Notes: a model not told the origin generated them from the sequence alone. A stretch of 64,000 nt of DNA from an uncultured Planctomycetia bacterium (GCA_964354545.1 CAYHAE010000001.1:65190-129189); one strand, 5' to 3'; shown: positions 1,671-24,677, counted from the stretch's first letter. Program-made: numbers and translations.

Positions 1671-1868
1671 ATGCCGGAAGAGAACGTCTTCACGGTCCAG
1701 GAGTTGGCTCGCTACCTCAAGATGAAACCGGTAACTATCTATAAACACGCCAAAGAGGGCAAGTTACCTGGTTTCAAGGTTGGAGCCAATTGGAGGTTCA
1801 AGAAGTCTACAATAGACAATTGGATCTCTGGACAGGAAGAAAAAGAGAATCAAAAGAGCAGTATATAA
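1671..1868 (+). CDS. small excisionase/AlpA-type HTH DNA-binding protein, copy 2
   Basis: 65 aa. The N-terminal 45 aa are almost identical to the copy at 760-948. Confidence 0.6.
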   Translation: MPEENVFTVQELARYLKMKPVTIYKHAKEGKLPGFKVGANWRFKKSTIDNWISGQEEKENQKSSI

Positions 1869-1977: not shown

Positions 1978-3228
1978 ATGAATAAAAGAGTTGTAATTAC
2001 AGGACTGGGGGTACTTGCCTCGAACGGCATCGGCAAGGATGAGTTCTGGAAGTCCCTCAAGGAAGGACGCTCAGGCATCAAGCCTGTGACCCTCTTCGAC
2101 ACAGGGAATCTGCGGACCAAACTCGCAGGCGAGATATCCGACTTCCAGCCAGAGAAAATTTTAGGTCCGAAAGGCCTGCGGACTTTGGACAGGACGACGA
2201 AGCTCGTACTGTGTGCGTCTCACTTGGCGCTCGATGATGCAGGGATAAAATATCCTTTGAGCGAGGAGGAAACAGACTTTTTTGGTGTGTCATTGGGTTC
2301 CACAATGGGTTCTGTCGCGTCCATCAGCGAATTCGATAAAGAGGCATTACGCCATGGGCCCCGAGCCGTGAACCCCGCGCTTTTCCCCAATACCGTGATA
2401 AATTCGCCCGCCAGTCACATCTCGATAATGTTCAACATACAAGGTTTCAACTCCACGATCGCGACAGGGTTCTGCTCAAGCCTGGACGCGATATACTACG
2501 CGATGAATATGCTTAATCTATATGAATACAAAGTAGTGCTGACAGGAGGGGTGGAAGAATTGTGCGAGCATACATATAAAGGTTTTTACAAAATCGGCCA
2601 TCTTGCGGGTTCACGGCCCGGCAAAGAAGAGATCAATAGCCCTTTCGACAGACGGCGAAATGGCATCGTCTTCGGCGAAGGCGCGTGCATAGTCATTCTG
2701 GAAGAACTTGAACATGCCCTGAGTCGGAACGCGAAGATCTATGCGGAAGTACTGGGCTACGGCACGTCATTTGACCCAAAGAGCCGGAACATCTACAGCC
2801 CAAAGGCAGAAGGCGCTACGGAAGCGATAAGGTCGTGTCTTGAGGATGCCGGGGTCGATGGCAAGGATATCGATTATATAAGCGCGAGCGGGAATTCCAC
2901 GCTTGATTGCGATGTAATGGAAACGCGTGCGGTCAAGAATGTCTTTGGTGAACGAGCAAAGAAGATTCCGATAAGTTCATTGAAATCCATGGCGGGGGAG
3001 TCCTTCTCCGCTTCAGGGGCACTGAACCTTGCCGGTTGCCTCGGGATTTTAGAGGAAAATTTTATACCGCCTACGATATGTTACGCAGAGCCCGACAGGC
3101 GATGCGATTTAGACTATGTGCCGAATGAGACACGGGAAGCAAAGGTCGATAAGATCCTGATCGACGCCTTTAGCCCCACCGGCTCAAACTCGACGCTCGC
3201 GGTAGGGAGATATGTTGCTCAAAGATAA
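1978..3228 (+). CDS. beta-ketoacyl synthase-like protein; active-site Cys present but both catalytic His replaced (CLF-like or priming partner)
   Basis: Thiolase-fold KAS family throughout. The TGFCSS Cys box is present. The FabF His303 position reads SASGNST and the His340 position reads SMAGESF. Confidence 0.8.
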   Translation: MNKRVVITGLGVLASNGIGKDEFWKSLKEGRSGIKPVTLFDTGNLRTKLAGEISDFQPEKILGPKGLRTLDRTTKLVLCASHLALDDAGIKYPLSEEETDFFGVSLGSTMGSVASISEFDKEALRHGPRAVNPALFPNTVINSPASHISIMFNIQGFNSTIATGFCSSLDAIYYAMNMLNLYEYKVVLTGGVEELCEHTYKGFYKIGHLAGSRPGKEEINSPFDRRRNGIVFGEGACIVILEELEHALSRNAKIYAEVLGYGTSFDPKSRNIYSPKAEGATEAIRSCLEDAGVDGKDIDYISASGNSTLDCDVMETRAVKNVFGERAKKIPISSLKSMAGESFSASGALNLAGCLGILEENFIPPTICYAEPDRRCDLDYVPNETREAKVDKILIDAFSPTGSNSTLAVGRYVAQR

Positions 3229-3955
3229 GGTTGCAATAGTAACCGGAGGATCGCGCGGCATAGGCAGGGCCATCGTATCGGAATTCGCGAGCCAGGGAGC
3301 AAACGTCGCGTTTACGTTTCTTAAAAGCGAAGACAAAGCCCTCGAATTGAAAAAAGAGATCGAGGGAAAAGGCGGTAAGGTCCTCGTTTTTAGGAATGAC
3401 ATAAAAGATTACGGCGCAACTCGAATTATGGTAGAGGGCGTAAAGAGTCAATTCGGCAGACTGGATATCATCGTAAATAATGCCGGTATATTGCGTGATA
3501 AGGCGCTTATTCTCATGGAAGAAGTGGACTGGGAAGACGTGCTGTCTACCAATCTCTCTGGCGCATTTAACCTTATCAAGGCAGCGATCGTGACATTCAT
3601 GAAGCAAAGAAGCGGCAACATCATCAATGTAACGTCAGTAGCCGGCATAAAGGGTATGGCACGGCAAGTCAATTACTCAGCGAGCAAGGCCGGCATGATA
3701 GGTCTTACAAAGTCGTTAGCAAAGGAGGTTGGTAGCTACAATATCAGGGTGAATGCGATAGCGCCCGGGTATATAGATACTGATATGATTAAAGATTTCA
3801 AAGAAGAATATAAAAAAGACTTATTGAAACGCGTTCCATTGAACCGTTTTGGGAAGGCAGAAGAAGTTGCAAAGGTGGCAACGTTTCTTGCCTCAGACGA
3901 ATCGCAATACATAACGGGTCAGGTGATAACTATTGACGGCGGTTTAGCGATGTAG
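3212..3955 (+). CDS. fabG: 3-oxoacyl-ACP reductase, SDR family
   Basis: TGGSRGIGRAI Rossmann motif, NNAG motif and YSASKAG catalytic Tyr/Lys motif. It overlaps the upstream KS. Confidence 0.85.
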   Translation: MLLKDKVAIVTGGSRGIGRAIVSEFASQGANVAFTFLKSEDKALELKKEIEGKGGKVLVFRNDIKDYGATRIMVEGVKSQFGRLDIIVNNAGILRDKALILMEEVDWEDVLSTNLSGAFNLIKAAIVTFMKQRSGNIINVTSVAGIKGMARQVNYSASKAGMIGLTKSLAKEVGSYNIRVNAIAPGYIDTDMIKDFKEEYKKDLLKRVPLNRFGKAEEVAKVATFLASDESQYITGQVITIDGGLAM

Positions 3956-3978: not shown

Positions 3979-4233
3979 ATGCCTAAACTAGATGCAAGGT
4001 CATTAGAGCAAGAATTGAGAGCGCTTGTTGCCGAGATAGTGGAGATTGAGCCGGAGAAGATAACACCGGAGGCAAAGTTCGTTGAAGATTTGGGGATGGA
4101 TTCCATGATGGCGCTTGAAATTTTGGCATCGATCGAAAAGAAATATAAATTGAAAATTCCCGATGAGAACCTTACGAAGATAACAAATTTAAACCAGGTC
4201 ATAAAATTGGCGAACGAATTCTTAACTAAATGA
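3979..4233 (+). CDS. acyl carrier protein
   Basis: DLGMDSMMALE phosphopantetheine-attachment motif. It is about 85 aa with an RBS gaggaag upstream. Confidence 0.8.
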   Translation: MPKLDARSLEQELRALVAEIVEIEPEKITPEAKFVEDLGMDSMMALEILASIEKKYKLKIPDENLTKITNLNQVIKLANEFLTK

Positions 4234-4249: not shown

Positions 4250-5464
4250 ATGAACAGGCGTGTTGTGGTGACTGGTTTGGGTGTTGTGTCGTCGATAGGC
4301 ATTGGTAAAGATGAGTTCTGGAAGAACCTCATTGCCGGCAAGTCAGGGATAAGCGATATCACCACTTTCGACACATCAGAATACTCTACCCATAAAGGAG
4401 GCGAAGTTAAAAACTTTGACCCCAAAGAATTTATCCCAAAAAATAGAATAAACGATGTCGCAAGGGCTTCACAATTCGCCATCGCTGCAACAAAGATGGC
4501 GCTTGAAGATGCGGGAGTTGATTTGGAGGGAATTCGTAATAAAAAGGTTGGTATAGTAATGGGTACTACCATGGCGGATGTCCAGTCGTTGGAGCAAATA
4601 GATAAGCATTGGATAAGTAAAGGAGAAGATGATGTATGGCCTGTTAATATTAAGAAATATCCGGCAAACAACATTTCAGATCAGATTGGTTTCTATTTTA
4701 GCATACAAGGGTTAAATTCCACGATTCCGACTGCGTGCGCAGCCGGAAATTATTCTATTGGATTTGCATTTGATTTAATAAGAACGGGTAAATTAGATTT
4801 TGCGGTAGTTGGAGGTGCAGATCCAATTTCTCGAACAAATTTTGCAGGTTTTAATCGTCTCGTTGCTATGGCCCCAGACAGATGCCAACCATTCGATAAA
4901 AATAGAAAGGGTATGATGGTTGGAGAAGGGGCAGGTGTGTTAATATTGGAGGAACTGGAAATAGCAGAGAAGCGAAACACATCCATATATGCTGAAATTC
5001 TAGGGTATGGATTGAGTTGCGATGCGTATCATATGACTTCGCAGCGTCCCGATGGTATCATTAAAGTAATGGAGAAGGCGATAAAAAACTCAAGAGTCAA
5101 TAAGGGAGAGGTCGACTATATCAGCGCTCATGGGACTGGCACACCATCAAATGATAAAGCAGAATGTGAGGCAATCAAAACAGTGTTTGGTGTTTTAGTT
5201 AGGAGTATATCTATTAGCTCTATTAAATCAATGCTTGGCCATACCATGGGTGCAGCTAGCGCTATAGAGGCGCTTACCTGTTGCCTTGCAATAGAAAACG
5301 GCATTATTCCACCTACTATTAACTATGAAACGCAGGATCCTGAATGTGACATTGATTGCGTTCCAAATGTGGCAAAAAAGAAGACATTGAAAGTCGTTCT
5401 AAATAATTCATTTGCATTCGGTGAGAATAATGCATGTGTGGTGTTTAAAAAATATGAAAGATAA
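4250..5464 (+). CDS. beta-ketoacyl-ACP synthase with canonical Cys-His-His triad (KAS I/II-like)
   Basis: TACAAG Cys box, SAHGTGT and SMLGHTMG His motifs. The gene is AT-rich. Confidence 0.85.
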   Translation: MNRRVVVTGLGVVSSIGIGKDEFWKNLIAGKSGISDITTFDTSEYSTHKGGEVKNFDPKEFIPKNRINDVARASQFAIAATKMALEDAGVDLEGIRNKKVGIVMGTTMADVQSLEQIDKHWISKGEDDVWPVNIKKYPANNISDQIGFYFSIQGLNSTIPTACAAGNYSIGFAFDLIRTGKLDFAVVGGADPISRTNFAGFNRLVAMAPDRCQPFDKNRKGMMVGEGAGVLILEELEIAEKRNTSIYAEILGYGLSCDAYHMTSQRPDGIIKVMEKAIKNSRVNKGEVDYISAHGTGTPSNDKAECEAIKTVFGVLVRSISISSIKSMLGHTMGAASAIEALTCCLAIENGIIPPTINYETQDPECDIDCVPNVAKKKTLKVVLNNSFAFGENNACVVFKKYER

Positions 5465-6038
5465 TTTGTTAAAGCTTATAAGAAGTAGGCGCACTATACG
5501 AAAATATACAGATAAAGAAATTTCCAATAAACAAATTATGAAAATATTAGAAGCGGGAAGATGGAGCCCCTCGGTTCACAATGCACAACCTTGGCGTTTC
5601 ATTGTGATCAGAAAAGAGCCAGTTATTAAAAGGCTGGCTGGTATATTATTGAAGAAATCTCATCATCTATTCTCTGGGTTTGATATTATTGTCAAAAAGA
5701 CAGCAGAGGTAGTCTTAAGCGCTCCTATCGCTATAGTTATATATAATTCATGTGAGCTCTCAAAAAGGATGAGAAAATTCGGCGATCCCTACTTTTCAAT
5801 TACAGAGATATCGGAGTTGCAGAGCATTTCAGCTTCGATTGAGAATATGTTATTAATGGCGCATTCATTAGGTTTAGGGGCCGCCTGGTTAACATCGCCA
5901 CTTTTTTGCGCCGCAGAGATAAGATCTCTTTTTAATATAAATGGTTCATTTGTAGCACTTTTAACAATTGGATATTCTGGTCAATCTTGTGCAATTTCCG
6001 ATAGAAAATCTTTGAAAAGTTGCATAAAATTCTATTAA
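5454..6038 (+). CDS. nitroreductase-family flavoprotein
   Basis: RRTIRKY...SPSVHNAQPWRF signature. The start overlaps the KAS stop codon. Confidence 0.7.
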   Translation: MKDNLLKLIRSRRTIRKYTDKEISNKQIMKILEAGRWSPSVHNAQPWRFIVIRKEPVIKRLAGILLKKSHHLFSGFDIIVKKTAEVVLSAPIAIVIYNSCELSKRMRKFGDPYFSITEISELQSISASIENMLLMAHSLGLGAAWLTSPLFCAAEIRSLFNINGSFVALLTIGYSGQSCAISDRKSLKSCIKFY

Positions 6039-6039
6039 A

Positions 6040-7530
6040 ATGCAATTAAAACAGGAAAATAAATACGATGTAATTGTAATTGGCGCAGGTATTAGTGGCC
6101 TTATATGCGGCACTATTTTAGCCAAGAATGGCGTAAAAGTCCTTATCGTCGAAAAAAATAATAAAGTAGGTGGTTATTGTTGTTCTTTTATTAGAAATAG
6201 TTTTAAGTTTGATGCGGGTGTGCATTACTTAGGAAGCCTACGTCAAAAAGGCGGACAATTAAGAAAAATACTTGATGAAATAGAATTAACTAGCGACTTG
6301 GAATTAGTTGACACTGATATTTCTGACAAAATATTATTCCTTGATTTCGAAATAATTTTCGGGAAAAATCTCGACGCAGTTACGGATTCTTTCAAAAAGA
6401 ATTTTTCGAATGAAATTGATAGCATTCGGAAATTCATTATTTATATATCCAAAACAGATTTTTCACAACTTTATAGAGAGAATATTACTTTAACATTTAG
6501 GCAGCTCCTTGACAAATATTTTAAATCGGAGTATATAAAACAAATTTTTTCCACGCCTTTAGGCAATGCCGGGGCATCGTCGAATAAGATTGCAGCAATT
6601 AGCGCAATTATTTTATTTAGGGAATATATTTTTGATAGTGGATATTATCCTAAAGGCGGGATGCAAGCTTTTTCAGATAAAATATGTCAAAAGTTCAAAA
6701 CGTTCGGAGGAGAAATTTTATTAAATTCGGAGGTAACAAAAATTTTGCTAACTACTAATAATGAGGCAACGGCTATAATCATAGATGACGGTGAAAGAAT
6801 AGAAGCATCTTATATAGTTTCATGCATAGATTCTTTTCGTACCTTTTTTGATTTATTCTCGAAAAATAGAACGATAGACAAAATTAGAACTAAAATAAAG
6901 AAATTGGTTCCTTCATTTTCTGCTTTTGTCATTTATTTGGGTGTAAAAAACGTAACGCAGGGGTTAGATAGTGTTAAATGTAGCACATGGTTTTGTCCCG
7001 AGCCTAATATAGATGCATATTATGGCTCTGTCTTAAGCAATCACTTAGATTTTAAAAAAAGTTTTTTATTGATCTCTCGGCCAACTTTTTTTGATAAGTC
7101 TCTTGCTCCAAGCAATAGCGAAATCATATCAGTCTTTACTGCCGCACCATTTAAAGATATTGCGTTTTGGGAAAAGAATAGGAAAAAAATAGTCGAAAAC
7201 ATTCTATATAACGTCAAAAAAGTAATTCCTGGAATAACCAATAGCAATATACTTGTAAAAGAGTCAGCCACACCTTTAACATTTTATAAATTTACTTATA
7301 ATTATCGAGGTGCATTGTATGGCTGGGCACCTATCGTAGACCAAATCTCATCAAATATTATGCCCATGAAATCACCTGCTATAAAAAATATGTTATTTGC
7401 AGGTCACTGGACAACTCAGGGATATGCTCAGGGGGGAATACCTGTTGTTGCAATTTCGGGGAGAAATGTTGCTAAGAAGGTATTAAATACATTTTTTAAA
7501 ACGAAAACCAGTATCTTATCACATGATTAA
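6040..7530 (+). CDS. FAD-dependent oxidoreductase of the phytoene desaturase/amine oxidase (CrtI-like) family
   Basis: N-terminal DVIVIGAGISGL...VLIVEKNNKVGGYC dinucleotide-binding motif. About 500 aa. Confidence 0.7.
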   Translation: MQLKQENKYDVIVIGAGISGLICGTILAKNGVKVLIVEKNNKVGGYCCSFIRNSFKFDAGVHYLGSLRQKGGQLRKILDEIELTSDLELVDTDISDKILFLDFEIIFGKNLDAVTDSFKKNFSNEIDSIRKFIIYISKTDFSQLYRENITLTFRQLLDKYFKSEYIKQIFSTPLGNAGASSNKIAAISAIILFREYIFDSGYYPKGGMQAFSDKICQKFKTFGGEILLNSEVTKILLTTNNEATAIIIDDGERIEASYIVSCIDSFRTFFDLFSKNRTIDKIRTKIKKLVPSFSAFVIYLGVKNVTQGLDSVKCSTWFCPEPNIDAYYGSVLSNHLDFKKSFLLISRPTFFDKSLAPSNSEIISVFTAAPFKDIAFWEKNRKKIVENILYNVKKVIPGITNSNILVKESATPLTFYKFTYNYRGALYGWAPIVDQISSNIMPMKSPAIKNMLFAGHWTTQGYAQGGIPVVAISGRNVAKKVLNTFFKTKTSILSHD

Positions 7531-9208
7531 CAAGTTGCAAGAATGCGAAATAGTAAGCAGCCGTATAATGTATAAGAACAATTCTGATATGAATATTTTA
7601 GGATATATTGATTCTGGAGTAACTGGCTATGATGCGAAACCATTCATTATCATTCCTCCGGGATACGGAGAAACAAAAAAAGATCACATATCAACTGCTT
7701 ATTACTTGGTAAGCAATGGTTTTAATGTGCTTCGTTACGATAATACTAATCATATCGGAGAAAGCGATGGGGAAATGGTAGATTGTAATTTGTTATCAAT
7801 GGAAAAAGATTTGGATGCAAGCATTAATTTCATAACGAGCAATTTTGCTACTGACAAGGTTGGTGTCATAGCTTCTAGCCTTGCTAGTAGAGTTGCCTTT
7901 AAGGTTGCCTCCCGTAATAGCTTTATATCTTTCATTATAAGCTTAGTCGGTGTTACGAATTTGAGAAAATCAATTTATTATGTCTATAAAGAGAAGATGA
8001 TAGAAGGGTACATTAGAGGACGCAGATGGGGCATTACTGATATTTTAGGTTTTGAAGTCAGCGATAATTTTCTAAAAATAGCTGTAGAAAATAATTATGA
8101 TACGTTTATTAGTACACTGAATGACATTAAGCGTATAGAGATTCCAATTTTATATATAGTTGCAGAACATGATGCATGGACCGATATTAAAGATAGTTAT
8201 TTGGTATACAAAAAGACGAAAAATATTAATAAAGAATTGTTTTTTGTTTCTAACGCTTTACATCAAATACAAGAAAACCCAAAGCTTGCAAAACAGGTCA
8301 TTTTGAAAATAGTTAAAAATTGCATTAAATACATGCACAATTGCGCAATTTCAGATGAACAATGCATGGAGCCTGACATACATTTTATAGTACGGCAAAA
8401 TAGAATCGAGCAAACAAATTTAAAAAAAACATTGACGGTAACTAGAAACGACGAAAAAAAATTCTGGACTAAGTATATGTCAGATTACTTTATATTAATG
8501 AAATCCTATGAATATAAAAATTTTTTAAGATTAAACTATGAACTGTTAGGCGGGTTTATAGATGGAAATAATTTCTTAGACGCCGGATGCGGAAATGGGC
8601 ATTTTGGTGCTTGGTTAGCAACTAAATTATGCCAAATTGAAAAAATAAGTCGTCTTCACAATTATAATAAGATTTTGTATACGGGGATAGATTTTGTAGA
8701 CCCACCCCTTAAGGAAGCTTTGGATAAGCACGCAAAATTAATCGCGACTTTATCTAAAAAAGAAAATATTGATTTATTAAAAAAGATGAAATTTGTTTAT
8801 ATCGTAGCTACACTAGAAAATGAGTTACCGCTTGAGAATAATTTTTTTGATAAAATTTGTTGCAATCTTGTTATCTCCTATGTTAAAAAGCCAGTCAAAG
8901 TTATTCAAAATCTCGTAAAAAAAATGAAGGAAGGGGGAAAAATAACGGTAAGTTCTCTAAAGCCAAATAACGATCTTTCTCTCATATATCGTAAGGCGCT
9001 TGATCAATCTTTAACCAGTAAAGAAGTTTTTGAAGCTAGAAGGCTTTTAACGAATGCAGGGAAAATAAAATATAAGGAGAAAATAGGTCATTATACATTT
9101 TTCAATGAATTTGAGTTGCTTGAAGTTTTAAGAAAGGCAGGATGTAAAGAAATACATACTTTTAGAACATTTGGAGACCAAGCAAATATTGCTGTAGGAA
9201 CTAAATAG
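7523..9208 (+). CDS. fusion protein: LuxD-like acyltransferase (alpha/beta hydrolase) domain + class I SAM-dependent methyltransferase domain
   Basis: The N-terminal domain resembles the LuxD myristoyl-ACP acyltransferase family (NGFNVLRYDNTNHIGESDG ... VGVIASSLASRVAF). The C-terminal domain has the LDAGCGNGHFG methyltransferase motif I. Confidence 0.55.
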   Translation: MINKLQECEIVSSRIMYKNNSDMNILGYIDSGVTGYDAKPFIIIPPGYGETKKDHISTAYYLVSNGFNVLRYDNTNHIGESDGEMVDCNLLSMEKDLDASINFITSNFATDKVGVIASSLASRVAFKVASRNSFISFIISLVGVTNLRKSIYYVYKEKMIEGYIRGRRWGITDILGFEVSDNFLKIAVENNYDTFISTLNDIKRIEIPILYIVAEHDAWTDIKDSYLVYKKTKNINKELFFVSNALHQIQENPKLAKQVILKIVKNCIKYMHNCAISDEQCMEPDIHFIVRQNRIEQTNLKKTLTVTRNDEKKFWTKYMSDYFILMKSYEYKNFLRLNYELLGGFIDGNNFLDAGCGNGHFGAWLATKLCQIEKISRLHNYNKILYTGIDFVDPPLKEALDKHAKLIATLSKKENIDLLKKMKFVYIVATLENELPLENNFFDKICCNLVISYVKKPVKVIQNLVKKMKEGGKITVSSLKPNNDLSLIYRKALDQSLTSKEVFEARRLLTNAGKIKYKEKIGHYTFFNEFELLEVLRKAGCKEIHTFRTFGDQANIAVGTK

Positions 9209-9221
9209 AAAATTTAAGCCT

Positions 9222-11357
9222 ATGAACTATTTTGGAATTACAGGCCTCTTGAATGGAATAATAAGCACAATTTTGGGCCTATTTGTAATTACAAGAGATT
9301 TTCGTAATGTTAAATATATTGCCTATTCTCTAGCTTGTTTGAATGTTTCGATTTGGAGCTATAGTTATTTTCTTTGGCAACTCTCTAACGATTATGTAAG
9401 CGCTCTTTTCTGGGCAAGAGCTTTAATGGCAGGTAGTGTTTATACTCCCATTTGTCATTTACATGCCTTAGTAGAAATATTAAATGAAAAAACTAGAAAA
9501 AGGCAAAAAATTATTATTTTAGGATATTTATTAGCCACACTTTTGTTGATTTCTGATTTCGGACCATTTTTAGTAAAGGGTGTTGAATCCAGAATGTTTT
9601 TTCCATTTTGGCCAATTCCTGGCATTGCGTTTCATTTTTTTATAGCCGTATGGGTTTATTACGTTGTATATAGCATTTATATTCTGTATAAACATAGTTT
9701 TAAAATTCAGGTCGCAGATGCAAATAAGATAAAATTTATCTTTATCATAACACTTTTTGTTTGGATTGGTGCCGCAACTAATCTTACATTATGGTATAAC
9801 ATAAACATTCCACCCTGGGGAAACCCGGCCATATCTATTTATTTAATATTGATCGCTTATGCTATATTACGATATCGGTGGATGGACATCGAAGTCGTCA
9901 TCAAGAAGACCCTTGTCTTTGCGGGGTTGTTGGCGGCGGTGTTTGCCATATTAATCCTGCCGACTCTGATTATTCAGGAATATCTTCTGAGAAGTGCTAG
10001 GTTTAGCGGAAGGGCACTGGGTCTTACCGTAAGCGGTATTATCATCATATTCACCATGAGGAAGATCGAAAATTTTCTTATAAATGTAACAGACAAATAC
10101 CTCTTTCAGAAGAAATACGACTACAAAGAGCTGCTCAAGACATTCACCACGGATGTTCTCACGGTCATGAACCTGGACAGGCTCGTGAACCTCACCGTGG
10201 ATAAGCTCGTCGACATCGTAAAGCTCAACTCCTGTGCAGTATTGCTCCTCGATGAGGATAGCCGGCAGTTCACCGTGGTCGCCTCAAAGCATATAAAAGA
10301 CCCCTCGGTGACATTGGTTAAGCCCAATGGCATCATCGCGTTTTTAGAGACTACCCACGGATACCTCTTGAAAAGCGAGCTCGCTCAAAAGAAGGTATTC
10401 ATCCCGGAGCCGGTCCAGGAGGTAATAGATAAGCTTAACGCAGAACTTATCATACCCATGGTGTTACATGATAAGGTTATGGGGATATTATCGCTCGGCA
10501 AGAAGAAGTCCGATGAGGGCTACACCCAAGATGACTGGGATATACTTATGCCGCTTTCCAGGACGCTCGCCATAGCGATCTCTAACGCAAAACTCTTCGA
10601 GGAACTCGGAAAGACCCAGGCGGAGGCGGCACAGAGGGAGAAGATGGCGGTCATCGGGACATTGTCGGCTGGCATAAACCATGAGATTTGTAATCCTCTT
10701 GGCATCGCGCGCGGGCAGTGCGAGGCCTTCCTGTTGAACGTGCGCGATGGCCTGTTCAAAGATAAAAGCCCCGATGAGCTATTAACCAAGGCCAAGGAGA
10801 TAATGCAGAAGGTAATAAAAGAGACCGACCGGGCCGTTTCCATCACCAAGAAGCTTTCGAGTTTCGCAAAGCCGTCTAGGGGCGAGGCGGAGTATATCGT
10901 CATAGATAAAGAAGTGGACGAGGTCCTGGCTCTGGTTGGCTACGAACTGAAATTGGAGAAGATCGAGATCGAGAAGCAAGTAGGAAAAGGTTTACCCGAC
11001 CTTTTCGTCGATAGGAAACAGCTCCAGGAGATCCTTTTCAACCTTATCCGCAATGCCGGCCAGGCGATAGGCGAAAAAGGGAAGATCACGGTCGCGGCCC
11101 ATGAGTTGAAAGGAAAGATAAGCATCGATATCCAGGATACGGGGTCGGGGATCCCTGAGGACAAGATAAAGGAGCTCTTCAATCCATTCTTCACGACCAA
11201 GGAACCGGGCAAAGGCACAGGTCTGGGGTTGTTCATCGTTCGTCAGGTCGTTGAGAAGAACGGCGGACGCATCTATCTCAAACAGACGAAAGTCGGAGAA
11301 GGAACGACATTTACGCTTGAATTTCCTGTTGCGGCAGCGAAGGAAGTTCAGGTTTAA
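9222..11357 (+). CDS. sensor histidine kinase (polytopic N-terminal membrane domain, GAF, HisKA, HATPase_c), paralog 1
   Basis: Multiple TM helices are followed by the [11 protein letters not shown] motif. The H-box is [12 protein letters not shown]-boxes DTGSGI and GTGLGL are present. Confidence 0.8.
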
Positions 11358-11384: not shown

Positions 11385-11756
11385 ATGGAAAAACCACGGA
11401 TAGTTGCAATAGACGATGAAGCCGAATTCGTCGACATGTTGAAGAACTATTTTGCGCCAAGAGGGTATGACATCGAGGTGGCGATCCGCGGGGCAAAGGG
11501 CATCGAGATCGTAAAGGAGAAGAAGCCGAACGTCGTGTTGATGGACCTGAAGATGCCTGGGATCGATGGCGATGAGGTGCTGACGCTCCTCAAATCGATG
11601 GAGCCGGCTCCCAAGGTGATATTCGTGACAGCATATGACGACGGCGGCAAGACGAAGGCGCGCCTCTTGAAGATGGGCGCATACGCGTATTTCGACAAGC
11701 CATTGTCGAGCCTGAAGGATTTGGAAGAGGCGATTAATCAGGCAGCTCAGAAATAA
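11385..11756 (+). CDS. single-domain response regulator (CheY-like receiver)
   Basis: Motifs DDE, VLMDLKMPGIDG and the downstream Lys. Confidence 0.8.
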   Translation: MEKPRIVAIDDEAEFVDMLKNYFAPRGYDIEVAIRGAKGIEIVKEKKPNVVLMDLKMPGIDGDEVLTLLKSMEPAPKVIFVTAYDDGGKTKARLLKMGAYAYFDKPLSSLKDLEEAINQAAQK

Positions 11757-11765
11757 ACGCGTGCA

Positions 11766-11791
11766 GATGATCACCGATATCTGTGATCATC
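11766..11791. promoter_or_regulatory. near-perfect 26-bp palindrome GATGATCACcGATATCtGTGATCATC (24 of 26 positions symmetric)
   Basis: Read directly in the sequence. It lies between the two receiver genes. Confidence 0.5.
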
Positions 11792-11817
11792 TGTGTTCCA
11801 AAAAAACAGGAGTACCC

Positions 11818-12198
11818 ATGCGCAAAATACTCGTGGTCGATGACGAGATCGACGTATGCGATTTCGTGAAGACTTTTTTCGAAGAGAGAGGGTTTAGGGT
11901 TTTTACCGCGCTGAACGGCGCTGAAGCGGTCTCGATCGTTCAGAGAGACAAACCGGATGTGATACTGCTTGATATCAAGATGAAGGGCATGGACGGGCTC
12001 GCTACGCTGCACCAGATCAAGGAGGTTGACCGGGATTCGAAAGTCATCATGGTTACCGCGCTCGAGGACCAGGACAAGATGGAAGAGGCGTATAAATGCG
12101 GCGCGATCGATTACATCACAAAACCCCTCGTCCTGGATTATCTGGAATCGGCGGTGTTAAAGGCATTGGGACTGAGCAACAGCGCGACGATCCGTTAG
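11818..12198 (+). CDS. single-domain response regulator (CheY-like receiver)
   Basis: Motifs VVDDE, ILLDIKMKGMDG and TKP. Confidence 0.8.
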   Translation: MRKILVVDDEIDVCDFVKTFFEERGFRVFTALNGAEAVSIVQRDKPDVILLDIKMKGMDGLATLHQIKEVDRDSKVIMVTALEDQDKMEEAYKCGAIDYITKPLVLDYLESAVLKALGLSNSATIR

Positions 12199-12415: not shown

Positions 12416-13840
12416 GTGACCTATAACAACCACAGAAAAGCGCCGAGCTGGTCCAAGCTCCAGAACTGGTTTTTACAGCTCAGCGCCGAGGGAGAGAACG
12501 GGAACGGCGCGGTTAAGAATAAAGGCGCAGATGCGTCTGCCCGGGATACCTCTCACGAAAAATTCGCCCCCAGGCTGGATTACCAGGTCTTCTTGGAAAA
12601 TGCTTCGAGGAGCATGATCCGTTTCAAGAAGCCCGAGCACCTCATAAAGATGATCTGCCGCGTCATCAGCGAGCAGCTTAAGGTTACCCACACGGCGATG
12701 CTGCTGTTTAAAGAGTCGAAGAACGCGTACATCCTGATCGATTCAAGGGGCGAGGGCGGGCTGAAGATCCCGGTCGGATATATCCGGCTGCCGTTAGACA
12801 GCCCCCTGATCCAGATATTCAATCAACAACAGAACTTTCTCGTATCGGGCACAGGGACACTGAACTATGACGACATCATCATCTGCCTCAAGAATAGAGA
12901 TATACTCGACAAAGAGCCGGAATTGTACAACGAGCTTTTAGCCCTAAAGAAGCAGATGGACCTGCTGAAGGCGAACGTGTGCGTTCCGTGCTATTTTAAA
13001 CAGGATCTCCTTGGGATCATGATCCTGGGCTACAAGATAAACGGACAGCGTTTCAGAAGAGATGAGCTCGGTTTCTTCGTCACTCTGGCGAACGATGCTG
13101 CGATGGCGATATCGAATGCGCAGCTCATCGAAAGCCAGCTGGAGAGGATCGACGAGATAAAAGAGCTCTATAATCGCGAGCACAGGATATTCATTCACAC
13201 CGCGATCGCGCTTGCCGCGGCCATCGATGCGAGAGACCCGTATACCCACGGCCATACTGCGAGGGTAACGAACTACTGCCTTGCCATCGCGAAAGAGCTG
13301 GAGGGAGTTCCGGAAGAGGGCGGATACAAGAATTTCAAGGAGACCCTGCACCTATCGGCGCTTTTGCACGATGTCGGGAAGATCGGCATACCTGACCACA
13401 TATTGAATAAGACAGGCATGCTCACACCCGAAGAGTATACGGAGGTGAAGAAGCATCCTCTTATAGGCGCGATGATAATAAATCCTATCAAGGAATTGAA
13501 CGAGATCGCGCGGGAAGTGCGCCACCACCAGGAGGCCTTCGACGGTTCCGGCTATCCCGATGGGCTCAAAGAGAGCGAGATACCCTTTATCGCGAGGATC
13601 ATCGCAGTCGCCGACGCGTTCGATGCGATCACCACCGATAGGCCTTACAGGAAGAAGAAAAGCCCTGAGGAGGCAATTAAAGAACTTAAGAAATATTCGG
13701 GAACGCAGTTCGACCCTGTTGTCGTTTCAGCCCTCATCCTCGCCTACGAAAAAGGAAACCTCCTGCCCAACCACAAGAATAGGAACGGTAAGAACGGAAG
13801 TAACGGTATCAAATCTCCCTACCCTGCAAATCCTTTTTAA
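12416..13840 (+). CDS. HD-GYP domain c-di-GMP phosphodiesterase with N-terminal GAF-like sensor
   Basis: HD motif LHDVGKIGIP and GYP motif FDGSGYPDGL. GTG start with an AGGAG RBS. Confidence 0.8.
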   Translation: MTYNNHRKAPSWSKLQNWFLQLSAEGENGNGAVKNKGADASARDTSHEKFAPRLDYQVFLENASRSMIRFKKPEHLIKMICRVISEQLKVTHTAMLLFKESKNAYILIDSRGEGGLKIPVGYIRLPLDSPLIQIFNQQQNFLVSGTGTLNYDDIIICLKNRDILDKEPELYNELLALKKQMDLLKANVCVPCYFKQDLLGIMILGYKINGQRFRRDELGFFVTLANDAAMAISNAQLIESQLERIDEIKELYNREHRIFIHTAIALAAAIDARDPYTHGHTARVTNYCLAIAKELEGVPEEGGYKNFKETLHLSALLHDVGKIGIPDHILNKTGMLTPEEYTEVKKHPLIGAMIINPIKELNEIAREVRHHQEAFDGSGYPDGLKESEIPFIARIIAVADAFDAITTDRPYRKKKSPEEAIKELKKYSGTQFDPVVVSALILAYEKGNLLPNHKNRNGKNGSNGIKSPYPANPF

Positions 13841-13956: not shown

Positions 13957-14805
13957 ATGAACAGGAAGTCTGAGCTCAAGTTCGATGAGATTGGCTATTG
14001 GTCTGAGATGAAACTCGAGATCATCGACGCATATGCTCGAGAATATTCTAAGATCATGTCTTGTCAGACCAGTCCCTCCTTAGAGCATACATATATTGAC
14101 GCTTTTGCTGGCCCTGGAATACACAGATCCAAAGAAACGGGTGACATGATTCCGGGAAGTCCAGAAAAAGCTCTTTCGGTCGTGCCACCCTTCAAGAAGT
14201 ATTGTTTCATAGATCTGGACTCGAATAAGGCGGGTTATTTACATCAACGGTATGATCAAAATCCCACGGTGAGCATTTATGAGGGTGATTGTAATCATAT
14301 TTTGTTGAAAGAAGTGTTCCCCCGAGTGAGATATAGGGATTACAGACGAGGGCTCTGCCTCCTGGATCCGTATGGGCTACATCTTAAGTGGGAAGTTATG
14401 AAAGAGGCGGGCCAGATGCGGTCGATTGAGATATTTCTCAACTTCCCAATAATGGACATGAATAGAAATGTATTCTGGCTTAATCCGGACGGAGTAGATC
14501 TGAGCGACATCGAGAGAATGAATGCTTTTTGGGGAGATGCCTCGTGGCGCGATATCGTATACACTAGCAGACGCGATCTTTTTGGGTATATCGAAAAAGA
14601 ACCCAATCCGGTGATTGCCGAGAACTTTAGGGATCGGCTCAAGAAAGTTGCGGGGTTTCAGTATGTAGCTAAGCCATTGCCCATGAGAAACGAAAAAAAT
14701 GCGGTGATATACTACCTCTTTTTTGCATCTCAAAAACCGGTTGCTGCTAAGATTGTCGATTACATATTTGACAAATATGGGAAGAGGAGGTTTGATAATG
14801 GCTGA
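13957..14805 (+). CDS. three-Cys-motif partner protein (TcmP-like)
   Basis: About 280 aa. The gene is co-directional with the following Gp37/Gp68 gene and overlaps it by 8 nt. Its identity is inferred mainly from this conserved pairing. AT-rich. Confidence 0.4.
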   Translation: MNRKSELKFDEIGYWSEMKLEIIDAYAREYSKIMSCQTSPSLEHTYIDAFAGPGIHRSKETGDMIPGSPEKALSVVPPFKKYCFIDLDSNKAGYLHQRYDQNPTVSIYEGDCNHILLKEVFPRVRYRDYRRGLCLLDPYGLHLKWEVMKEAGQMRSIEIFLNFPIMDMNRNVFWLNPDGVDLSDIERMNAFWGDASWRDIVYTSRRDLFGYIEKEPNPVIAENFRDRLKKVAGFQYVAKPLPMRNEKNAVIYYLFFASQKPVAAKIVDYIFDKYGKRRFDNG

Positions 14806-15550
14806 GTATTCCTCGATAGAGTGGACAGACTCAACCTGGAATCCGGCAACCGGTTGCAGCAAGGTCAGTTTGGGATGCAAAAATTGTTATGCAGAGACCT
14901 TTGCGGAGAGGTTTCGGGGTGTCCCGCGGCATCCATTCGAGCAGGGATTTGACTTAAAACTGTGGCCAAATCGGTTGAGTTTGCCTCTATTATGGAGAGA
15001 GCACCGCATGATTTTCGTTAACTCCATGTCTGACCTCTTCCACGAGGACGTTCCCGACGAATTTATTGCGAAGGTTTTTGAGACGATGCTACAGGCAGAT
15101 CGTCACACCTTTCAGTTGCTGACCAAGCGATCGGAACGGATGGTGCGCTGGATCCAAAAACGATTCAATCGATATCTGGTACCGCAACATATTTGGCTCG
15201 GGGTTTCCGTTGAAAATCAGGAATATGTGCGGAGGATCCATCATCTACAGAGGATGCCGGCATGCGTCAGGTTTGTATCCTGCGAACCGTTGCTAGGCCC
15301 TATTACGTTCGATTCGCGGGACCTGAACGGAATACATTGGGTTATTGTTGGCGGCGAGAGTGGGCCCAAGGCCAGGCCCATGGATCCATTGTGGGCTCGG
15401 GATATAAAGGATCAATGCGAACAAAATGAAGTGGCGTTCTTTTTCAAACAATGGGGGACGTTCAACGCCCGTGGAGAACGGGTCGGAAAGAAAAACGCCG
15501 GAAGGGTTTTGGATGGCAAGGTATGGGATCAAATGCCGGCAATGGTCTAA
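14798..15550 (+). CDS. phage Gp37/Gp68-family protein (three-Cys motif)
   Basis: N-terminal signature SSIEWTDSTWNPATGCSKVSLGCKNCYAE with C-x6-C-x2-C. About 250 aa. Confidence 0.65.
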   Translation: MAEYSSIEWTDSTWNPATGCSKVSLGCKNCYAETFAERFRGVPRHPFEQGFDLKLWPNRLSLPLLWREHRMIFVNSMSDLFHEDVPDEFIAKVFETMLQADRHTFQLLTKRSERMVRWIQKRFNRYLVPQHIWLGVSVENQEYVRRIHHLQRMPACVRFVSCEPLLGPITFDSRDLNGIHWVIVGGESGPKARPMDPLWARDIKDQCEQNEVAFFFKQWGTFNARGERVGKKNAGRVLDGKVWDQMPAMV

Positions 15551-16832: not shown

Positions 16833-18905
16833 ATGAATATTTTTACCATTTCTTCAGCTTTAATTTTTGTAACATCTTTAACTTCCGTAGCATTCCTATT
16901 ATTTAAAGGTAAAGAAAAACTAAAATGGCTATGGCTTCTATTTTCTATCTCCGTTGGAAATTGGGGACTTGCGGGCTATAACATATCAACTGCGCATTCA
17001 AAAGATATTGCCTTCGTATGGTGGAAAATCGCATATATTAGTGTAATTTTTGCTCCCGCGATCTATACGCATTTTGTTTTCACTTTTCTAAATAGTACGA
17101 AAAAATCGCTTCTCATATTGTTAGACATCGCAGCCTTTTCTTTTTTTGGTTTTAATCTATTATTTCCCAAGTTGTTTATTGGCGATCTGCGCCTTGTTTC
17201 TAGACAATTTTGGTGGCCCGATTGGCTAAGTACTTGCAACATCGTGTTTTTAATTTTTTTTGTTGCTTTTTATTGTTTCGCGCTCAATTATAGCATTTTA
17301 TTAATGATAAAACAGTTTTCCACCTCAACAGGTAGAAAGCGAAATCAGGCAAGATATTTTTTAATTGCAGCGATTTTTGGATGGGGCGGCGTTATGCCGC
17401 TTTTTTTGAATGTATTTTCGCATATTGACATTTATCCTTATAGTAATTTTTTGACATCAATTTACCCACTCATTGTCACCTACGCCATCATCCGCCATCG
17501 GCTGATGGACATCGAAGTCATCATAAAGAAGACCCTCATATTTGCGGGGTTATTCTCGGCGGCTTATGCGGTCTTCGCTTCTTTTGCCCTCTTGGGGCAG
17601 CTTGTCTTCGAGCGGTTCGTGACAGCCAACAGATGGGTCGCAATGCTCCCGAGCGTGGTAGTTGTCATCGCCATGTTCCGTCCTCTCGAGAAACTCCTGG
17701 TTGCTGTTACTGACAGGTACCTCTTCCAGAAGCGGTACGATGCCAAAGAGCTTCTCAAGATCTTCACCGAGGAGGTCCTTTTAGTCCTTGATATAGAGAA
17801 ACTTGCCGCCCTCACCATGAAAAAGCTCAACGAGACGATGAAGCTAACCACCTGCGCGCTCCTCCTCAAGGACGACGCGGCAGGAGACTTCGTATGCGCC
17901 TCGCCTCCTCCGGCAAACAAGGTGAGCTTATCCCGCGCAAGCGGCCTCGCCGTATCGCTGGAGAGATCGTCCTCTTTCATCTTGCGTACACATAGTGCGA
18001 GGATACCGGATACTGTAGCGAGCGACATGACACATCTCCGCGCAGAGCTCGCCATCCCCCTTCTCCTTCGCGGAAATCTCATCGGCATCCTCGCCCTCGG
18101 CAGGAAGATGTCAGATGAGGACTATGGCCAGGACGACTTGGACATACTTCTTCCTCTCGCGCAGACTCTCGCCATTGCCATCTCGAACGCGAAACTCTTC
18201 GACGAGCTCTCGAAGACCCAGGCAGAGGCAGCGCAGAAGGAGAAGATGGCGATGGTCGGAACCCTCGCCGCAGGCATGGCCCACGAGATAAGGAACCCCA
18301 TCACCACCATTAAGATATTCTCAGAATTCCTCAAGGAGAAGAAGGACGACCCCTCCTTCATCGAGAAGTTCGAGCGCCTCGTTCCAAGGGAGGTGGAGAA
18401 GATAAACCACATGATCACCCACCTCCTCGAGTTCTCAAGGCCCGCAGATTCCGCAGCAATGGAAGAAGTAGACCTCCATGAAGCCCTCAAGGACACGCTC
18501 GAGGTCCTCGGCCACGAGATGGTCTTACATGACATCGTCCTTAAAGAGGAGATAAGCGCTCTGCCTCCAGTATGGGGCAACCGGAAGCATCTCGAGGAGG
18601 TCCTCTTCAACCTCCTCCAGAACGCCATCCATGCCATAGGGAGGCGAGGTACCATCACCGTCACTGCGAAGGAGAGGGCAGGCTCAGTCGAGCTTGCCAT
18701 CCGCGACACCGGCTGCGGCATCCCCCAAAACGTCCTCCCCCACATATTCGAGCCCTTCTTCACCACCAAGATAGACACAAAAGGAGTAGGCCTTGGGCTC
18801 TATGTAGTCAAACAGCTCATGGTGAGGATGGACGGCTCTGTATCAGTCGAGAGTGAAGTAGGGAAGGGGACGACGTTCAGGCTGGTGTTCGCAAGGGCCA
18901 CATAA
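16833..18905 (+). CDS. sensor histidine kinase paralog 2 (7TM, GAF, HisKA, HATPase_c)
   Basis: Same architecture as 9222-11357, with the motifs LMDIEVIIKKT and GMAHEIRNP. Confidence 0.8.
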   Translation: MNIFTISSALIFVTSLTSVAFLLFKGKEKLKWLWLLFSISVGNWGLAGYNISTAHSKDIAFVWWKIAYISVIFAPAIYTHFVFTFLNSTKKSLLILLDIAAFSFFGFNLLFPKLFIGDLRLVSRQFWWPDWLSTCNIVFLIFFVAFYCFALNYSILLMIKQFSTSTGRKRNQARYFLIAAIFGWGGVMPLFLNVFSHIDIYPYSNFLTSIYPLIVTYAIIRHRLMDIEVIIKKTLIFAGLFSAAYAVFASFALLGQLVFERFVTANRWVAMLPSVVVVIAMFRPLEKLLVAVTDRYLFQKRYDAKELLKIFTEEVLLVLDIEKLAALTMKKLNETMKLTTCALLLKDDAAGDFVCASPPPANKVSLSRASGLAVSLERSSSFILRTHSARIPDTVASDMTHLRAELAIPLLLRGNLIGILALGRKMSDEDYGQDDLDILLPLAQTLAIAISNAKLFDELSKTQAEAAQKEKMAMVGTLAAGMAHEIRNPITTIKIFSEFLKEKKDDPSFIEKFERLVPREVEKINHMITHLLEFSRPADSAAMEEVDLHEALKDTLEVLGHEMVLHDIVLKEEISALPPVWGNRKHLEEVLFNLLQNAIHAIGRRGTITVTAKERAGSVELAIRDTGCGIPQNVLPHIFEPFFTTKIDTKGVGLGLYVVKQLMVRMDGSVSVESEVGKGTTFRLVFARAT
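18120..18905. repeat. about 0.8-kb segment near-identical to 20377-21162 (HK catalytic half)
   Basis: The encoded C-terminal roughly 260 aa of HK2 and HK3 are nearly identical. Minus-strand ORFs 18122-18778 and 20379-21035 translate almost identically. Confidence 0.8.
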
Positions 18906-21305: not shown

Positions 21306-21914
21306 ATGAACTTCAAAGAACTCTATAAAGTTGTAGAGAAGAATAGATATTATGTATTTTCGTTCGAAGACCTGCTCTCTTTTTTCCCACACGAGAGAAG
21401 GGCGACGCTCAAGGAGTCGGTCTATAGATGGAAGATGAAAGGATGGATCTACCCTCTCAAAAAAGGGCTTTACGAGCTAACCTATCCCAAAGATTTCGAT
21501 ATCCCCGATATGTATATTGCCAATAGGCTATATGGCCCTTCTTACATCTCATTGGAAACAGCGCTTTCGAATTGCAGCATTATTCCGGAAGTATCGATGG
21601 CGGTCACTTCCATAACCACAAAACCGACGCGGAAGTTCAAGAATAAGCACGGGCTTTTCATCTATCATACTGTGAAGCCCGCCTCATTTACAGGATACTA
21701 TGTCGAGAGACAGGGTGCTTTTGATATTCTCATTGCCGAACCGGAAAAAGCGCTCATAGATTTTCTATATTTTAATGCATACCGCGACAAAAAGTTTGAC
21801 CTCAAAGACGAACGGCTGGACAGAGGAGTCGTTTCGCGGCTTAATAAGAAGAAACTGCATCGCTACGCCGCCCTCTATAACATCGATCTAAAAGGACTCC
21901 ATGCTTACCTATGA
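21306..21914 (+). CDS. AbiEi-type antitoxin/transcriptional regulator (type IV TA / abortive infection)
   Basis: About 200 aa with an N-terminal winged-helix-like region. The gene overlaps the AbiEii-like gene by 14 nt. Confidence 0.55.
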   Translation: MNFKELYKVVEKNRYYVFSFEDLLSFFPHERRATLKESVYRWKMKGWIYPLKKGLYELTYPKDFDIPDMYIANRLYGPSYISLETALSNCSIIPEVSMAVTSITTKPTRKFKNKHGLFIYHTVKPASFTGYYVERQGAFDILIAEPEKALIDFLYFNAYRDKKFDLKDERLDRGVVSRLNKKKLHRYAALYNIDLKGLHAYL

Positions 21915-22704
21915 TGCGTTGAAAGCGTACGCTCGATCGAGAGGGATGCCACCGACGAAGATGAGAGGTGTTTTACGGGAGTACCTCCAGGTTCTTATAT
22001 TGAAGGAGATGTATAAAACCGGAGCCGGGAAAAAACTCTATTTCACAGGAGGAACCTACCTGCGGCTTGCCCATAACCTTAAGAGGTTTTCCGAAGACCT
22101 CGATTTTAATACAGCCGGCATAAGGAAGAATGAGTTCGAGGATCTGATCGGCAGAATAAAAGTAGAATTGAAAAGGATAAATATGGAATCCCGGATGCGA
22201 TTTGACCACTGGGACAACATATACGCAGCCCGTCTCATTTTTCCAACCATCGAGGGGGCCTACGGCATAGTGTCGGGCTATTCAAAAAAAGAAGGGATAA
22301 TAATAAAAATCGAGACAAATCGTCCGCGATGGAGAATAAAAAAGGAGACTCATGTCGTATCGGGGTTTGGCGAATTTTACCCATGCATATGCACGGATAA
22401 GGGCGCATTATTTGCGGATAAAATAGATGCGCTCGGCAAAAAGGCGCGCGGCAGGCATGTGTACGATGTAATGTTTATGCTCGCGAATCGCGTTCCCGTC
22501 GACAGGCGTGTTTTGTCATCCTTTGGTATAGATGACGACCCTTTGGATGCGATCGAGAGGAGGATCATGAGTTTCTCGAAGCAGGAGTTGAAAAAGCAGG
22601 CAGAGACCCTGAGGCCTTTTTTGTTCGAGGAAAGCGAGGCGGACTTCGTTGTCAACGCACACACTATTATTCCATCGCTCCTGGAAAAATACAGGAGAAG
22701 ATGA
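21901..22704 (+). CDS. AbiEii/AbiGii-family nucleotidyltransferase toxin
   Basis: Motif YFTGGTYLRL...RFSEDLDFN is characteristic of the DUF1814/AbiEii NTase. Confidence 0.65.
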   Translation: MLTYDALKAYARSRGMPPTKMRGVLREYLQVLILKEMYKTGAGKKLYFTGGTYLRLAHNLKRFSEDLDFNTAGIRKNEFEDLIGRIKVELKRINMESRMRFDHWDNIYAARLIFPTIEGAYGIVSGYSKKEGIIIKIETNRPRWRIKKETHVVSGFGEFYPCICTDKGALFADKIDALGKKARGRHVYDVMFMLANRVPVDRRVLSSFGIDDDPLDAIERRIMSFSKQELKKQAETLRPFLFEESEADFVVNAHTIIPSLLEKYRRR

Positions 22705-24452: not shown

Positions 24453-24677
24453 GAAAAGAGCAGGGCTGACCATCGCGATGTGTGAGAACAGTGGATGCGC
24501 ACGATTTAAAGCCCCAGGCAGCGAGTGGTCCTGCGAAAAATAAAAGAGATGGTCAGCTCATTTCGCGGGACTCTCCTCTCTGGGGTTCTTTTTTTGTTTC
24601 GCGCCGCTTGGCCAGGCCGTCTCGCAAGAGCCGCCTGGCCGTTTTATTTTTGTAGTGAGCTGATCAATGAGGCTGCC
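24453..24677 (+). promoter_or_regulatory. structured 5' leader with long-range inverted repeat and terminator-like hairpin plus T-run
   Basis: GCTGACCATC at 24465-74 pairs with GATGGTCAGC at 24548-57. Hairpin GGCCAGGC...GCCTGGCC at 24609-39 is followed by GTTTTATTTTT, immediately before the ATG at 24678. Confidence 0.4.

Follow-up and report, generated by a model that had tools for sequence, protein, structure and literature searches.

In a 64,000-nt stretch of DNA from an uncultured Planctomycetia bacterium (GCA_964354545.1 CAYHAE010000001.1:65190-129189; hereafter the window, whose positions serve as coordinates throughout), a single gene at 7523..9208 on the plus strand encodes a genuine and intact fusion in which an acyl-chain-releasing enzyme of the LuxD type is joined to an S-adenosylmethionine (SAM)-dependent methyltransferase. 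Its genomic context, which an earlier sequence-only reading had missed, is more interesting than the fusion itself: the family is always encoded together with a seven-helix membrane kinase, which suggests an undescribed lipid-based signalling module of mostly uncultivated bacteria. The best explanation, to which we give a probability of about 45%, is that the fusion product is a soluble bifunctional enzyme forming the metabolic part of this conserved signalling module, where it would unload and methylate an acyl chain borne on an acyl carrier protein (ACP) and so yield a small hydrophobic signal sensed by the adjacent kinase. Read in this way, the module varies the theme of a "lipid signal synthase plus membrane sensor kinase" in a manner not described before. 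The support for every reading discussed here is computational.

Genomic coupling of the enzyme to a seven-transmembrane (7TM)-GAF kinase is obligatory. A HisKA_7TM-GAF kinase gene lies in the same same-strand cluster in 21 of 21 distinct loci from Omnitrophota, Nitrospirales and Opitutia, immediately 3' of the enzyme gene in 17 of them; in loci L003, L044, L045 and L046, a ketosynthase (KAS2), a nitroreductase and a CrtI-like gene stand between the two. In the window, the gene for the 7TM-GAF-HisKA-HATPase sensor histidine kinase HK1 (9222..11357, +, with the 7TM sensor part at 9222..9899; Pfam) starts 13 nt past the stop of the fusion. It is followed by two single-domain response regulators, RR1 (11385..11756, +) and RR2 (11761..12198, +), both assigned by Pfam and syntenic in L039, L044 and L045, and by the last gene of the conserved locus, a GAF-HD-GYP protein (12416..13840, +; HD_5 E=1e-41; syntenic in L039 and L044) that is a predicted phosphodiesterase of cyclic di-GMP (c-di-GMP). 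Response regulators and HD-GYP proteins follow the kinase in the window, L039, L040, L042 and L044, with a REC-HD-GYP form in L040 and L042; long-form loci add a sigma-54 NtrC-type regulator, and in L036 a second 7TM-GAF sensor carries a GGDEF output. In the Nitrospirales locus L006, the enzyme-kinase pair stands alone between housekeeping genes for an HtrA-type protease and EF-G, with a SnoaL-like protein encoded downstream of the pair. In the metagenome contig L036 (5630..12740), genes for a 7TM-GAF-GGDEF protein, a PilZ-SRPBCC-enzyme and a 7TM-GAF-kinase are inserted into the dcw cluster, between murC and murB.

The fusion is a protein of 561 aa, established by open reading frame (ORF) analysis, Pfam and a check of the sequence. 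The ORF has an ATG start, a TAG stop and no internal stops or frameshifts, and its ATG lies in an 8-nt overlap with the stop of the preceding CrtI-like gene (ATGATTAA). The single LuxD-like/methyltransferase ORF claimed by the sequence-only reading thus stands as an uninterrupted gene with full-length homologues at 34-50% identity. Pfam places Acyl_transf_2 on residues 41-287 and methyltransferase models on residues 340-543, and the AlphaFold2 (AF2) model of the full-length fusion (pLDDT 91.8, pTM 0.89) predicts one two-domain protein; this confident model agrees with an enzyme whose two domains are fixed relative to each other. A split into two genes or a frameshift is rejected because the ORF is intact, an identical protein recurs beside the same neighbours in two independent Logan assemblies, and full-length homologues are the rule. 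The broader notion of an annotation or assembly artefact, or of a decayed gene with one dead half, draws on the position of the gene, which lies on a metagenome-derived contig within a low-GC patch of mosaic composition, but it is effectively refuted by the same intact ORF and matching assemblies, by about 190 homologues with the same core, by conservation of the catalytic residues of both halves and by the confident two-domain model.

The N-terminal half (residues 1-290; 7523..8392, +) is a LuxD-like alpha/beta-hydrolase domain of the acyl-ACP thioesterase/acyltransferase type, as judged by Pfam, phmmer, profile and Foldseek comparisons. It matches Acyl_transf_2 (PF02273) with E=8e-29 (101.2 bits vs a cutoff of 20.3; model positions 32-276 of 294), well ahead of Hydrolase_4 (1e-10), Abhydrolase_1 (1e-4) and BAAT_C (0.003), and PF02273 matched all 68 sampled members of the family. 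The best solved relative is LuxD of Vibrio harveyi (1THT; single-sequence phmmer E=1.5e-22), annotated in the Foldseek result as a myristoyl-ACP thioesterase. The family profile matches 1THT with E=8.3e-42, against 9.3e-18 for the next hydrolase, and 1THT ranks first in Foldseek, with a TM-score of 0.84 on the target and an identity of about 22%. A generic hydrolase or BAAT-type enzyme in place of a LuxD-like one is rejected on the Pfam E-values and on this gap between the profile matches, in line with the LuxD-like assignment made from the sequence alone.

The HMMER alignment matches Ser114, Asp211 and His241 of LuxD to Ser119, Asp217 and His247 of the fusion, the predicted nucleophile (codon 7877..7879, +), triad acid (8171..8173, +) and triad base (8261..8263, +). 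Ser and His are present in 34/34 diverse members and Asp in 33/34, the remaining one having Glu, and conservation of each of the three is 90% or more among 68 randomly drawn members; the domain is apparently active. The nucleophile region quoted in the sequence-only reading, VGVIASSLASRVAF, is exact (residues 113-126); its LuxD pattern is present with the spacing one residue off, as the region at residues 66-83, GFNVLRYDNTNHIGESDG, follows GF.V.RYD...H.G.S.G and not RYD..H. The triad positions and the RYD...H.G.S.G region are common to LuxD and the fusion, whereas the fusion alone has a methyltransferase partner domain and a sensor kinase neighbour and stands outside a luxCABE context; no luxC, luxE or luciferase gene was seen among its neighbours in the window. 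The fusion is not a LuxD orthologue, because its equivalog scores fall below cutoff (96.3 bits vs 420 for NCBIfam NF052253 and 90.8 vs 529 for PRK13604), the identity is about 22% and the lux context is missing. From the likeness to LuxD and from the operon, we infer that the N-terminal half acts on acyl-ACP.

The two halves are joined by a predicted three-helix linker, or N-terminal methyltransferase cap, at residues ~291-341 (8393..8545, +; AF2 secondary structure and invariant columns), in which E296, W315 and Y318 are family-invariant. Residues ~342-561 (8546..9205, +) form a SAM-dependent methyltransferase domain of class I, with its Rossmann-like fold, a glycine-rich motif I (LDAGCGNGHFG, residues 352-362, exactly as quoted earlier; 8576..8608, +) and an acidic residue after strand 2, D390 (8690..8692, +). 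The LDxGCGxG motif and D390 are family-invariant, motif I being, like the triad, invariant or nearly so across the 34- and the 68-member sets, and these SAM-binding motifs show the domain to be a competent methyltransferase. The carboxyl methyltransferases JHAMT, CmoM, LahSB and SABATH are among its matches but do not outrank C-, N-, S- and hydroxyl-O-methyltransferases. The sequence-only reading had proposed that the first half takes acyl chains from ACP and that the second methylates the product; this interpretation is partly supported, as the identities of the two halves hold, and the use of acyl-ACP and the methyl acceptor are what we, too, infer.

Two rival explanations start from this pairing of a hydrolase with a methyltransferase. 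The first is a protecting-group chemistry like that of BioC and BioH, in which the carboxyl group of malonyl-ACP would be methylated, ketosynthase and ketoreductase would elongate the dicarboxylate and the hydrolase would later remove the methyl ester. BioC is the top NCBIfam match of the methyltransferase half, some homologues carry the JGI label "pimeloyl-ACP methyl ester carboxylesterase", and the operon has ACP, ketosynthase and ketoreductase genes; yet the BioC match reaches only 31.6 bits vs the TIGR02072 cutoff of 184.95, the hydrolase half is LuxD-like rather than BioH-like, and no biotin genes lie near the fusion. Such a role would also leave unexplained the universal kinase partner, the fusions to PilZ and REC domains and the loci devoid of ACP and ketosynthase genes, and we consider it improbable. 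We find it likewise improbable that the protein serves adaptation in the manner of CheR and CheB, with reversible methylation of carboxylates on the partner kinase or another protein, demethylation by the hydrolase and a REC domain setting the balance. A hydrolase, a methyltransferase, an optional REC domain and an adjacent kinase do resemble CheB (REC-methylesterase) plus CheR in outline, but the fusion has no CheR or CheB_methylest Pfam match at E<=1, and its folds are LuxD-like and generic class I methyltransferase. The kinase, moreover, has no methylation helices of the methyl-accepting chemotaxis protein type (Pfam finds 7TM, GAF, HisKA and HATPase only), and the dedicated ACP, ketosynthase and ketoreductase genes together with the SRPBCC fusions favour a lipid substrate.

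The combination of domains, which the sequence-only reading did not recognise as a described enzyme, recurs in other genomes and defines a large family. A word-indexed search gave more than 120 clusters (90% identity) with full-length coverage and 34-50% identity, and when 1.84 billion representatives were searched exhaustively with a profile, 607 proteins (clusters at 50% identity) reached E<=1e-30. The two-domain core is shared by some 190 full-length homologues that were retrieved, and the named sources are metagenome-assembled genomes of Omnitrophota, Nitrospirales/Nitrospirae and Opitutia/Opitutaceae. Judged by the nearest named relatives, the window itself would probably derive from an Omnitrophota genome. 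One truncated member (L013) lies on a 2,389-nt contig in a bin named "Candidatus Hydrothermarchaeales archaeon", which may reflect misbinning rather than archaeal occurrence. No source gives the family members a functional name, and our literature searches found nothing relevant on the fusion or on PF02273 outside lux operons, nor on HisKA_7TM ligands or Omnitrophota signalling. A search for plasmid-borne or cultivated homologues gave only a luxD reporter-type match.

Three architectures occur in the family: the core alone (~555-585 aa), as in the window; the core preceded by SRPBCC, PilZ or PilZ plus SRPBCC; and REC-PAS-PilZ-core proteins of 1,070-1,490 aa. In a random sample of 68 members, PilZ and SRPBCC were each present in 16, PAS in 3 and REC in 2. 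Fusion to c-di-GMP, phosphorylation and hydrophobic-ligand domains is therefore frequent, and it occurs alongside the association with HD-GYP enzymes. The REC-PAS-PilZ forms in L040 and L042 are preceded by genes for a SnoaL_3 protein and a ~330-aa protein without a Pfam match (L040 5574..7530, L042 527..2464). Not one of 252 family proteins has a transmembrane segment, and a direct "Rosetta stone" fusion of sensor to enzyme is rejected on this count. We base the signalling link on the 7TM-GAF kinase in 21/21 loci, on the HD-GYP and response-regulator neighbours and on the PilZ and REC-PAS-PilZ fusions.

The lipid substrate is suggested by the ACP, ketosynthase, ketoreductase and desaturase genes that share the operon in seven loci, together with the SRPBCC hydrophobic-ligand domain in 16 of the 68 sampled members. 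In the window, the fusion is gene 8 of a 12-gene same-strand operon, within which terminator-like sites are not above chance frequency. At its head is a small HTH_17 DNA-binding protein of the MerR/excisionase type (1671..1868, +; in the same position also in L003, L044, L045 and L046), which may regulate the operon. Next come KAS1, a FabF-like, chain-length-factor-like ketosynthase with both catalytic His replaced (ASGNST, GESFSAS; 1978..3228, +), a FabG-type 3-oxoacyl-ACP reductase (ketoreductase, KR; 3212..3955, +; TIGR01830, 309.6 bits, above the cutoff of 297.75), a dedicated ACP of 84 aa with a DSM motif containing Ser42 (3979..4233, +) and KAS2, a catalytically complete FabF-like ketosynthase (TACAAG with the Cys, HGTGT, GHTMGAAS; 4250..5464, +). 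Since KAS1 lacks both His and KAS2 has the full Cys/His/His set, the pair resembles the ketosynthase/chain-length factor (KS/CLF) of a type II polyketide synthase (PKS)-like system. This arrangement is typical of type II PKS or aryl-polyene-like systems, and weaker NCBIfam matches include cispentacin AmcF and flexirubin FlxB. A nitroreductase-family flavoenzyme (5454..6038, +; start uncertain among 5412, 5454 and 5538) and a CrtI/phytoene-desaturase-family flavin adenine dinucleotide oxidoreductase (6040..7530, +; TIGR02734 crtI_fam E=1.6e-43, below cutoff) then lead into the fusion. The seven loci in which ACP, a KS/CLF-like pair, a FabG-type KR and one or more CrtI-like desaturases accompany the enzyme are all of Omnitrophota type, and such genes stand with the enzyme only there. 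The window encodes no dehydratase; a FabA/ApeI-like one is present in the related locus L045.

We envision the signal being made in three steps. The LuxD-type domain would first load an acyl chain, presumably from ACP, onto Ser119 of the Ser119/Asp217/His247 triad and release it. In the window, the KS/CLF-like pair and the KR would assemble this chain on the dedicated ACP, and the CrtI-like desaturase and the nitroreductase-like enzyme would tailor it; a 3-hydroxyacyl chain is a natural candidate because no dehydratase is encoded. In Nitrospirales and Opitutia, where the lipid-assembly genes are absent, acyl-ACP would come from the general pool. The SAM methyltransferase, which is rigidly attached, would then methylate the released lipid, on an acceptor that is most simply its carboxyl group; the product would be an uncharged, membrane-permeant fatty-acid methyl ester, with C- or hydroxyl-O-methylation as alternatives. 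In the third step, which we propose from gene context, the product would act on the kinase as ligand for its seven-helix membrane domain, and the kinase may then signal through the response regulators to the HD-GYP c-di-GMP phosphodiesterase or, in other lineages, to the sigma-54 activator. Feedback on the enzyme by c-di-GMP (through PilZ) and phosphorylation (through REC) would be possible in many family members. Overall, this would be a synthase/receptor pair of the autoinducer type, a functional analogue of RpfF/RpfC/RpfG and PhcB/PhcS presumably drawn from unrelated protein families.

The same genes could instead describe a regulated effector: the kinase would sense a membrane property or an external cue and, together with c-di-GMP, control an enzyme whose product serves to remodel the lipids of the membrane or envelope or to complete a specialised lipid or polyketide, in a homeostasis or output loop rather than in cell-cell signalling. 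The DesK-DesR-Des system of Bacillus is a comparable loop. Output enzymes under regulation typically have N-terminal fusions such as REC-PAS-PilZ, PilZ and SRPBCC, the kinase and response regulators adjoin the enzyme, and in Omnitrophota it lies within a full type II fatty-acid synthase/PKS-like operon with a desaturase. The embedding of the L036 module in a cell-wall and division cluster points the same way, as do the phosphoethanolamine and phosphatidylethanolamine N-methyltransferases among the structural neighbours of the methyltransferase domain. However, the Nitrospirales and Opitutia pairs occur without other lipid genes, Pfam finds no regulatory domain on the window's own enzyme, and a LuxD-type domain, by the established function of LuxD, frees acyl chains from carriers and does not build membrane lipids. 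Divergence of the enzyme in the related operons, moreover, goes with the sensor domain and not with the controlling kinase and response-regulator core, as described below. On balance we regard this account, the main rival, as rather unlikely.

The divergence was measured by comparing four related operons (L003, L044, L045 and L046) with the window. KAS1, KR, ACP and KAS2 are 55-69% identical, and GAF, kinase, RR1, RR2 and HD-GYP 63-79%; the fusion is 44-50% identical, the nitroreductase and the CrtI-like enzyme 34-42% and the 7TM domain 34-39%. Chain building and signal transduction are thus conserved, and the fast-evolving set consists of the fusion, the tailoring enzymes and the sensor domain; this would be the pattern expected of a diversifying signal/receptor system. 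Across 15 loci, pairwise identities of the enzyme correlate with those of the sensor part at r=0.71-0.79, and with those of the kinase domain at r=0.65.

Base composition follows a similar division. The fusion lies in a low-GC patch, with a GC content at third codon positions (GC3) of 0.28 vs 0.64-0.81 for most genes of the window, and its 3' limit lies within the HK1 gene, at the end of the 7TM domain, where GC3 goes from 0.27 to 0.64. The divergent genes are low in GC3 at every related locus. Low-GC3 patches (0.27-0.39) occupy ~4250..9900 and 30.8-38.7 kb, against a baseline of ~0.7-0.8; horizontal exchange, weaker selection or another cause may have produced them. The boundary within the kinase gene had prompted the idea that enzyme and 7TM sensor were swapped as one horizontal cassette; its prediction, that the nearest enzymes should come with the nearest 7TM domains, failed, and, contrary to that model, the divergent genes are not contiguous in L044-L046.

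The window holds three 7TM-GAF kinases. HK2 (16833..18905, +) and HK3 (19081..21162, +) have no adjacent enzyme, and they share 97% identity over the kinase domain and 58% over GAF, but 25% over the 7TM domain. Their GC3 is 0.34-0.35 in the 7TM part and 0.72-0.75 in the remainder. Together, these contrasts in identity and composition suggest sensor-domain replacement on a recently duplicated kinase.

Several points weigh against a lipid signal synthase with its receptor. Loci with the closest enzymes (49-50%) have no closer 7TM domains (34-36%), the enzyme-sensor correlation is mild and confounded by shared phylogeny, and the rapid divergence of enzyme and 7TM domain may simply reflect weaker constraint. 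Identity to the LuxD family is only ~22%, acyl-ACP as substrate, rather than acyl-CoA or an ester, is an assumption, and the methyltransferase matches do not single out an acceptor atom. Their N-terminal REC, PAS and PilZ domains mark enzymes as outputs under regulation, which suits an effector role no less than a signal synthase, and for every family member product, substrate and ligand are putative.

Two known systems share the layout of a lipid signal synthase beside a membrane kinase. PhcB, a methyltransferase, and PhcS, a kinase, work with a quorum signal that is a fatty-acid methyl ester (PMC8578825, PMC11960443, PMC6989110), and for PhcB a methyltransferase domain alone is described (PMC6989110). 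The likeness, one of layout and description, is that of a SAM methyltransferase gene beside a membrane sensor kinase gene. The Phc signals are 3-hydroxy fatty-acid methyl esters, and a KR without a dehydratase would favour a 3-hydroxyacyl chain here as well; PhcR, PhcQ and PhcA act downstream there, whereas response regulators with HD-GYP or a sigma-54 regulator follow here, and the phyla differ. In the Rpf system, which makes diffusible signal factor (DSF), RpfF has acyl-ACP thioesterase activity and co-varies with the transmembrane sensor region of RpfC (PMC4517397), synthase and kinase sensor region co-varying between cluster variants (PMC4517397, PMC4542539). Rpf makes its acyl-ACP-derived signal with a thioesterase and, like the module here, has an adjacent polytopic kinase (RpfC) and an HD-GYP c-di-GMP phosphodiesterase as output (RpfG, a REC-HD-GYP protein), a likeness of layout and not of homology. 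RpfF has the crotonase fold and does not methylate, in contrast to the alpha/beta hydrolase plus methyltransferase here, and no enoyl-CoA hydratase (crotonase) family match was found by Pfam in the fusion or its neighbours. RpfC is a hybrid kinase without GAF, whereas HK1 has GAF.

The only named multi-transmembrane GAF kinase family that HK1 resembles is PrsK, of the PrsK/PrsR pair in XrtA/PEP-CTERM systems. The GAF/kinase part of HK1 matches PrsK (TIGR02916) with E=1.8e-37 and 129 bits vs a cutoff of 300, the membrane domain lying outside the match. A sigma-54 regulator is the partner there, and the long-form loci here also add one of NtrC type; no exosortase or PEP-CTERM genes were seen with the partner kinase. 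For biofuel, fatty-acid methyl esters have been made by an engineered route in which a thioesterase releases the fatty acid from ACP and a bacterial fatty-acid O-methyltransferase methylates its carboxyl group with SAM. These are the two chemical steps that the sequence-only reading had proposed, carried out by separate, unrelated enzymes with no natural fusion or signalling. A natural single-polypeptide thioesterase-methyltransferase could serve the biological production of methyl esters or methylated lipids.

If the signalling interpretation is true, this would be a third, independently evolved way of making and sensing a fatty-acid-derived signal, after DSF and the Ralstonia methyl esters. 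Omnitrophota would gain their first candidate system of chemical communication and Nitrospirales a new one; both groups are hard to culture and important for aquatic and nitrogen-cycle ecology. A class of ligand would then also be assigned to the HisKA_7TM sensor domain. Should the effector account be the true one, a new lipid-modifying enzyme controlled by c-di-GMP and phosphorylation would emerge. The module is compact, two genes being sufficient in Nitrospirales, and is therefore directly testable by heterologous expression. More tentative, and in our view doubtful, is the wider generalisation that undescribed lipid signalling, cell-cell or cell-autonomous, is widespread in Omnitrophota, Nitrospirota and Verrucomicrobiota, with a didomain synthase, a methylated fatty-acyl signal, 7TM-GAF kinases, c-di-GMP turnover, diversifying specificity variants and "orphan" receptors.

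Other features of the window lie outside the operon. Near the signalling locus are genes for a DUF5131 protein (14723..15550, +) and a homologue of AbiEii-type nucleotidyltransferase toxins (21901..22704, +), which fits a variable genomic island. A giant ORF of 2,847 aa (24525..33068, +) has Peptidase_C39 as its sole Pfam match (residues 1668-1757); the GC3 of its last ~2 kb is far below that of the remainder, and the ORFs at 34.5-38.7 kb are also low. A cobalamin riboswitch (Rfam RF00174, 68 bits; 53752..53962, +) lies just upstream of an ORF at 54035..56128.

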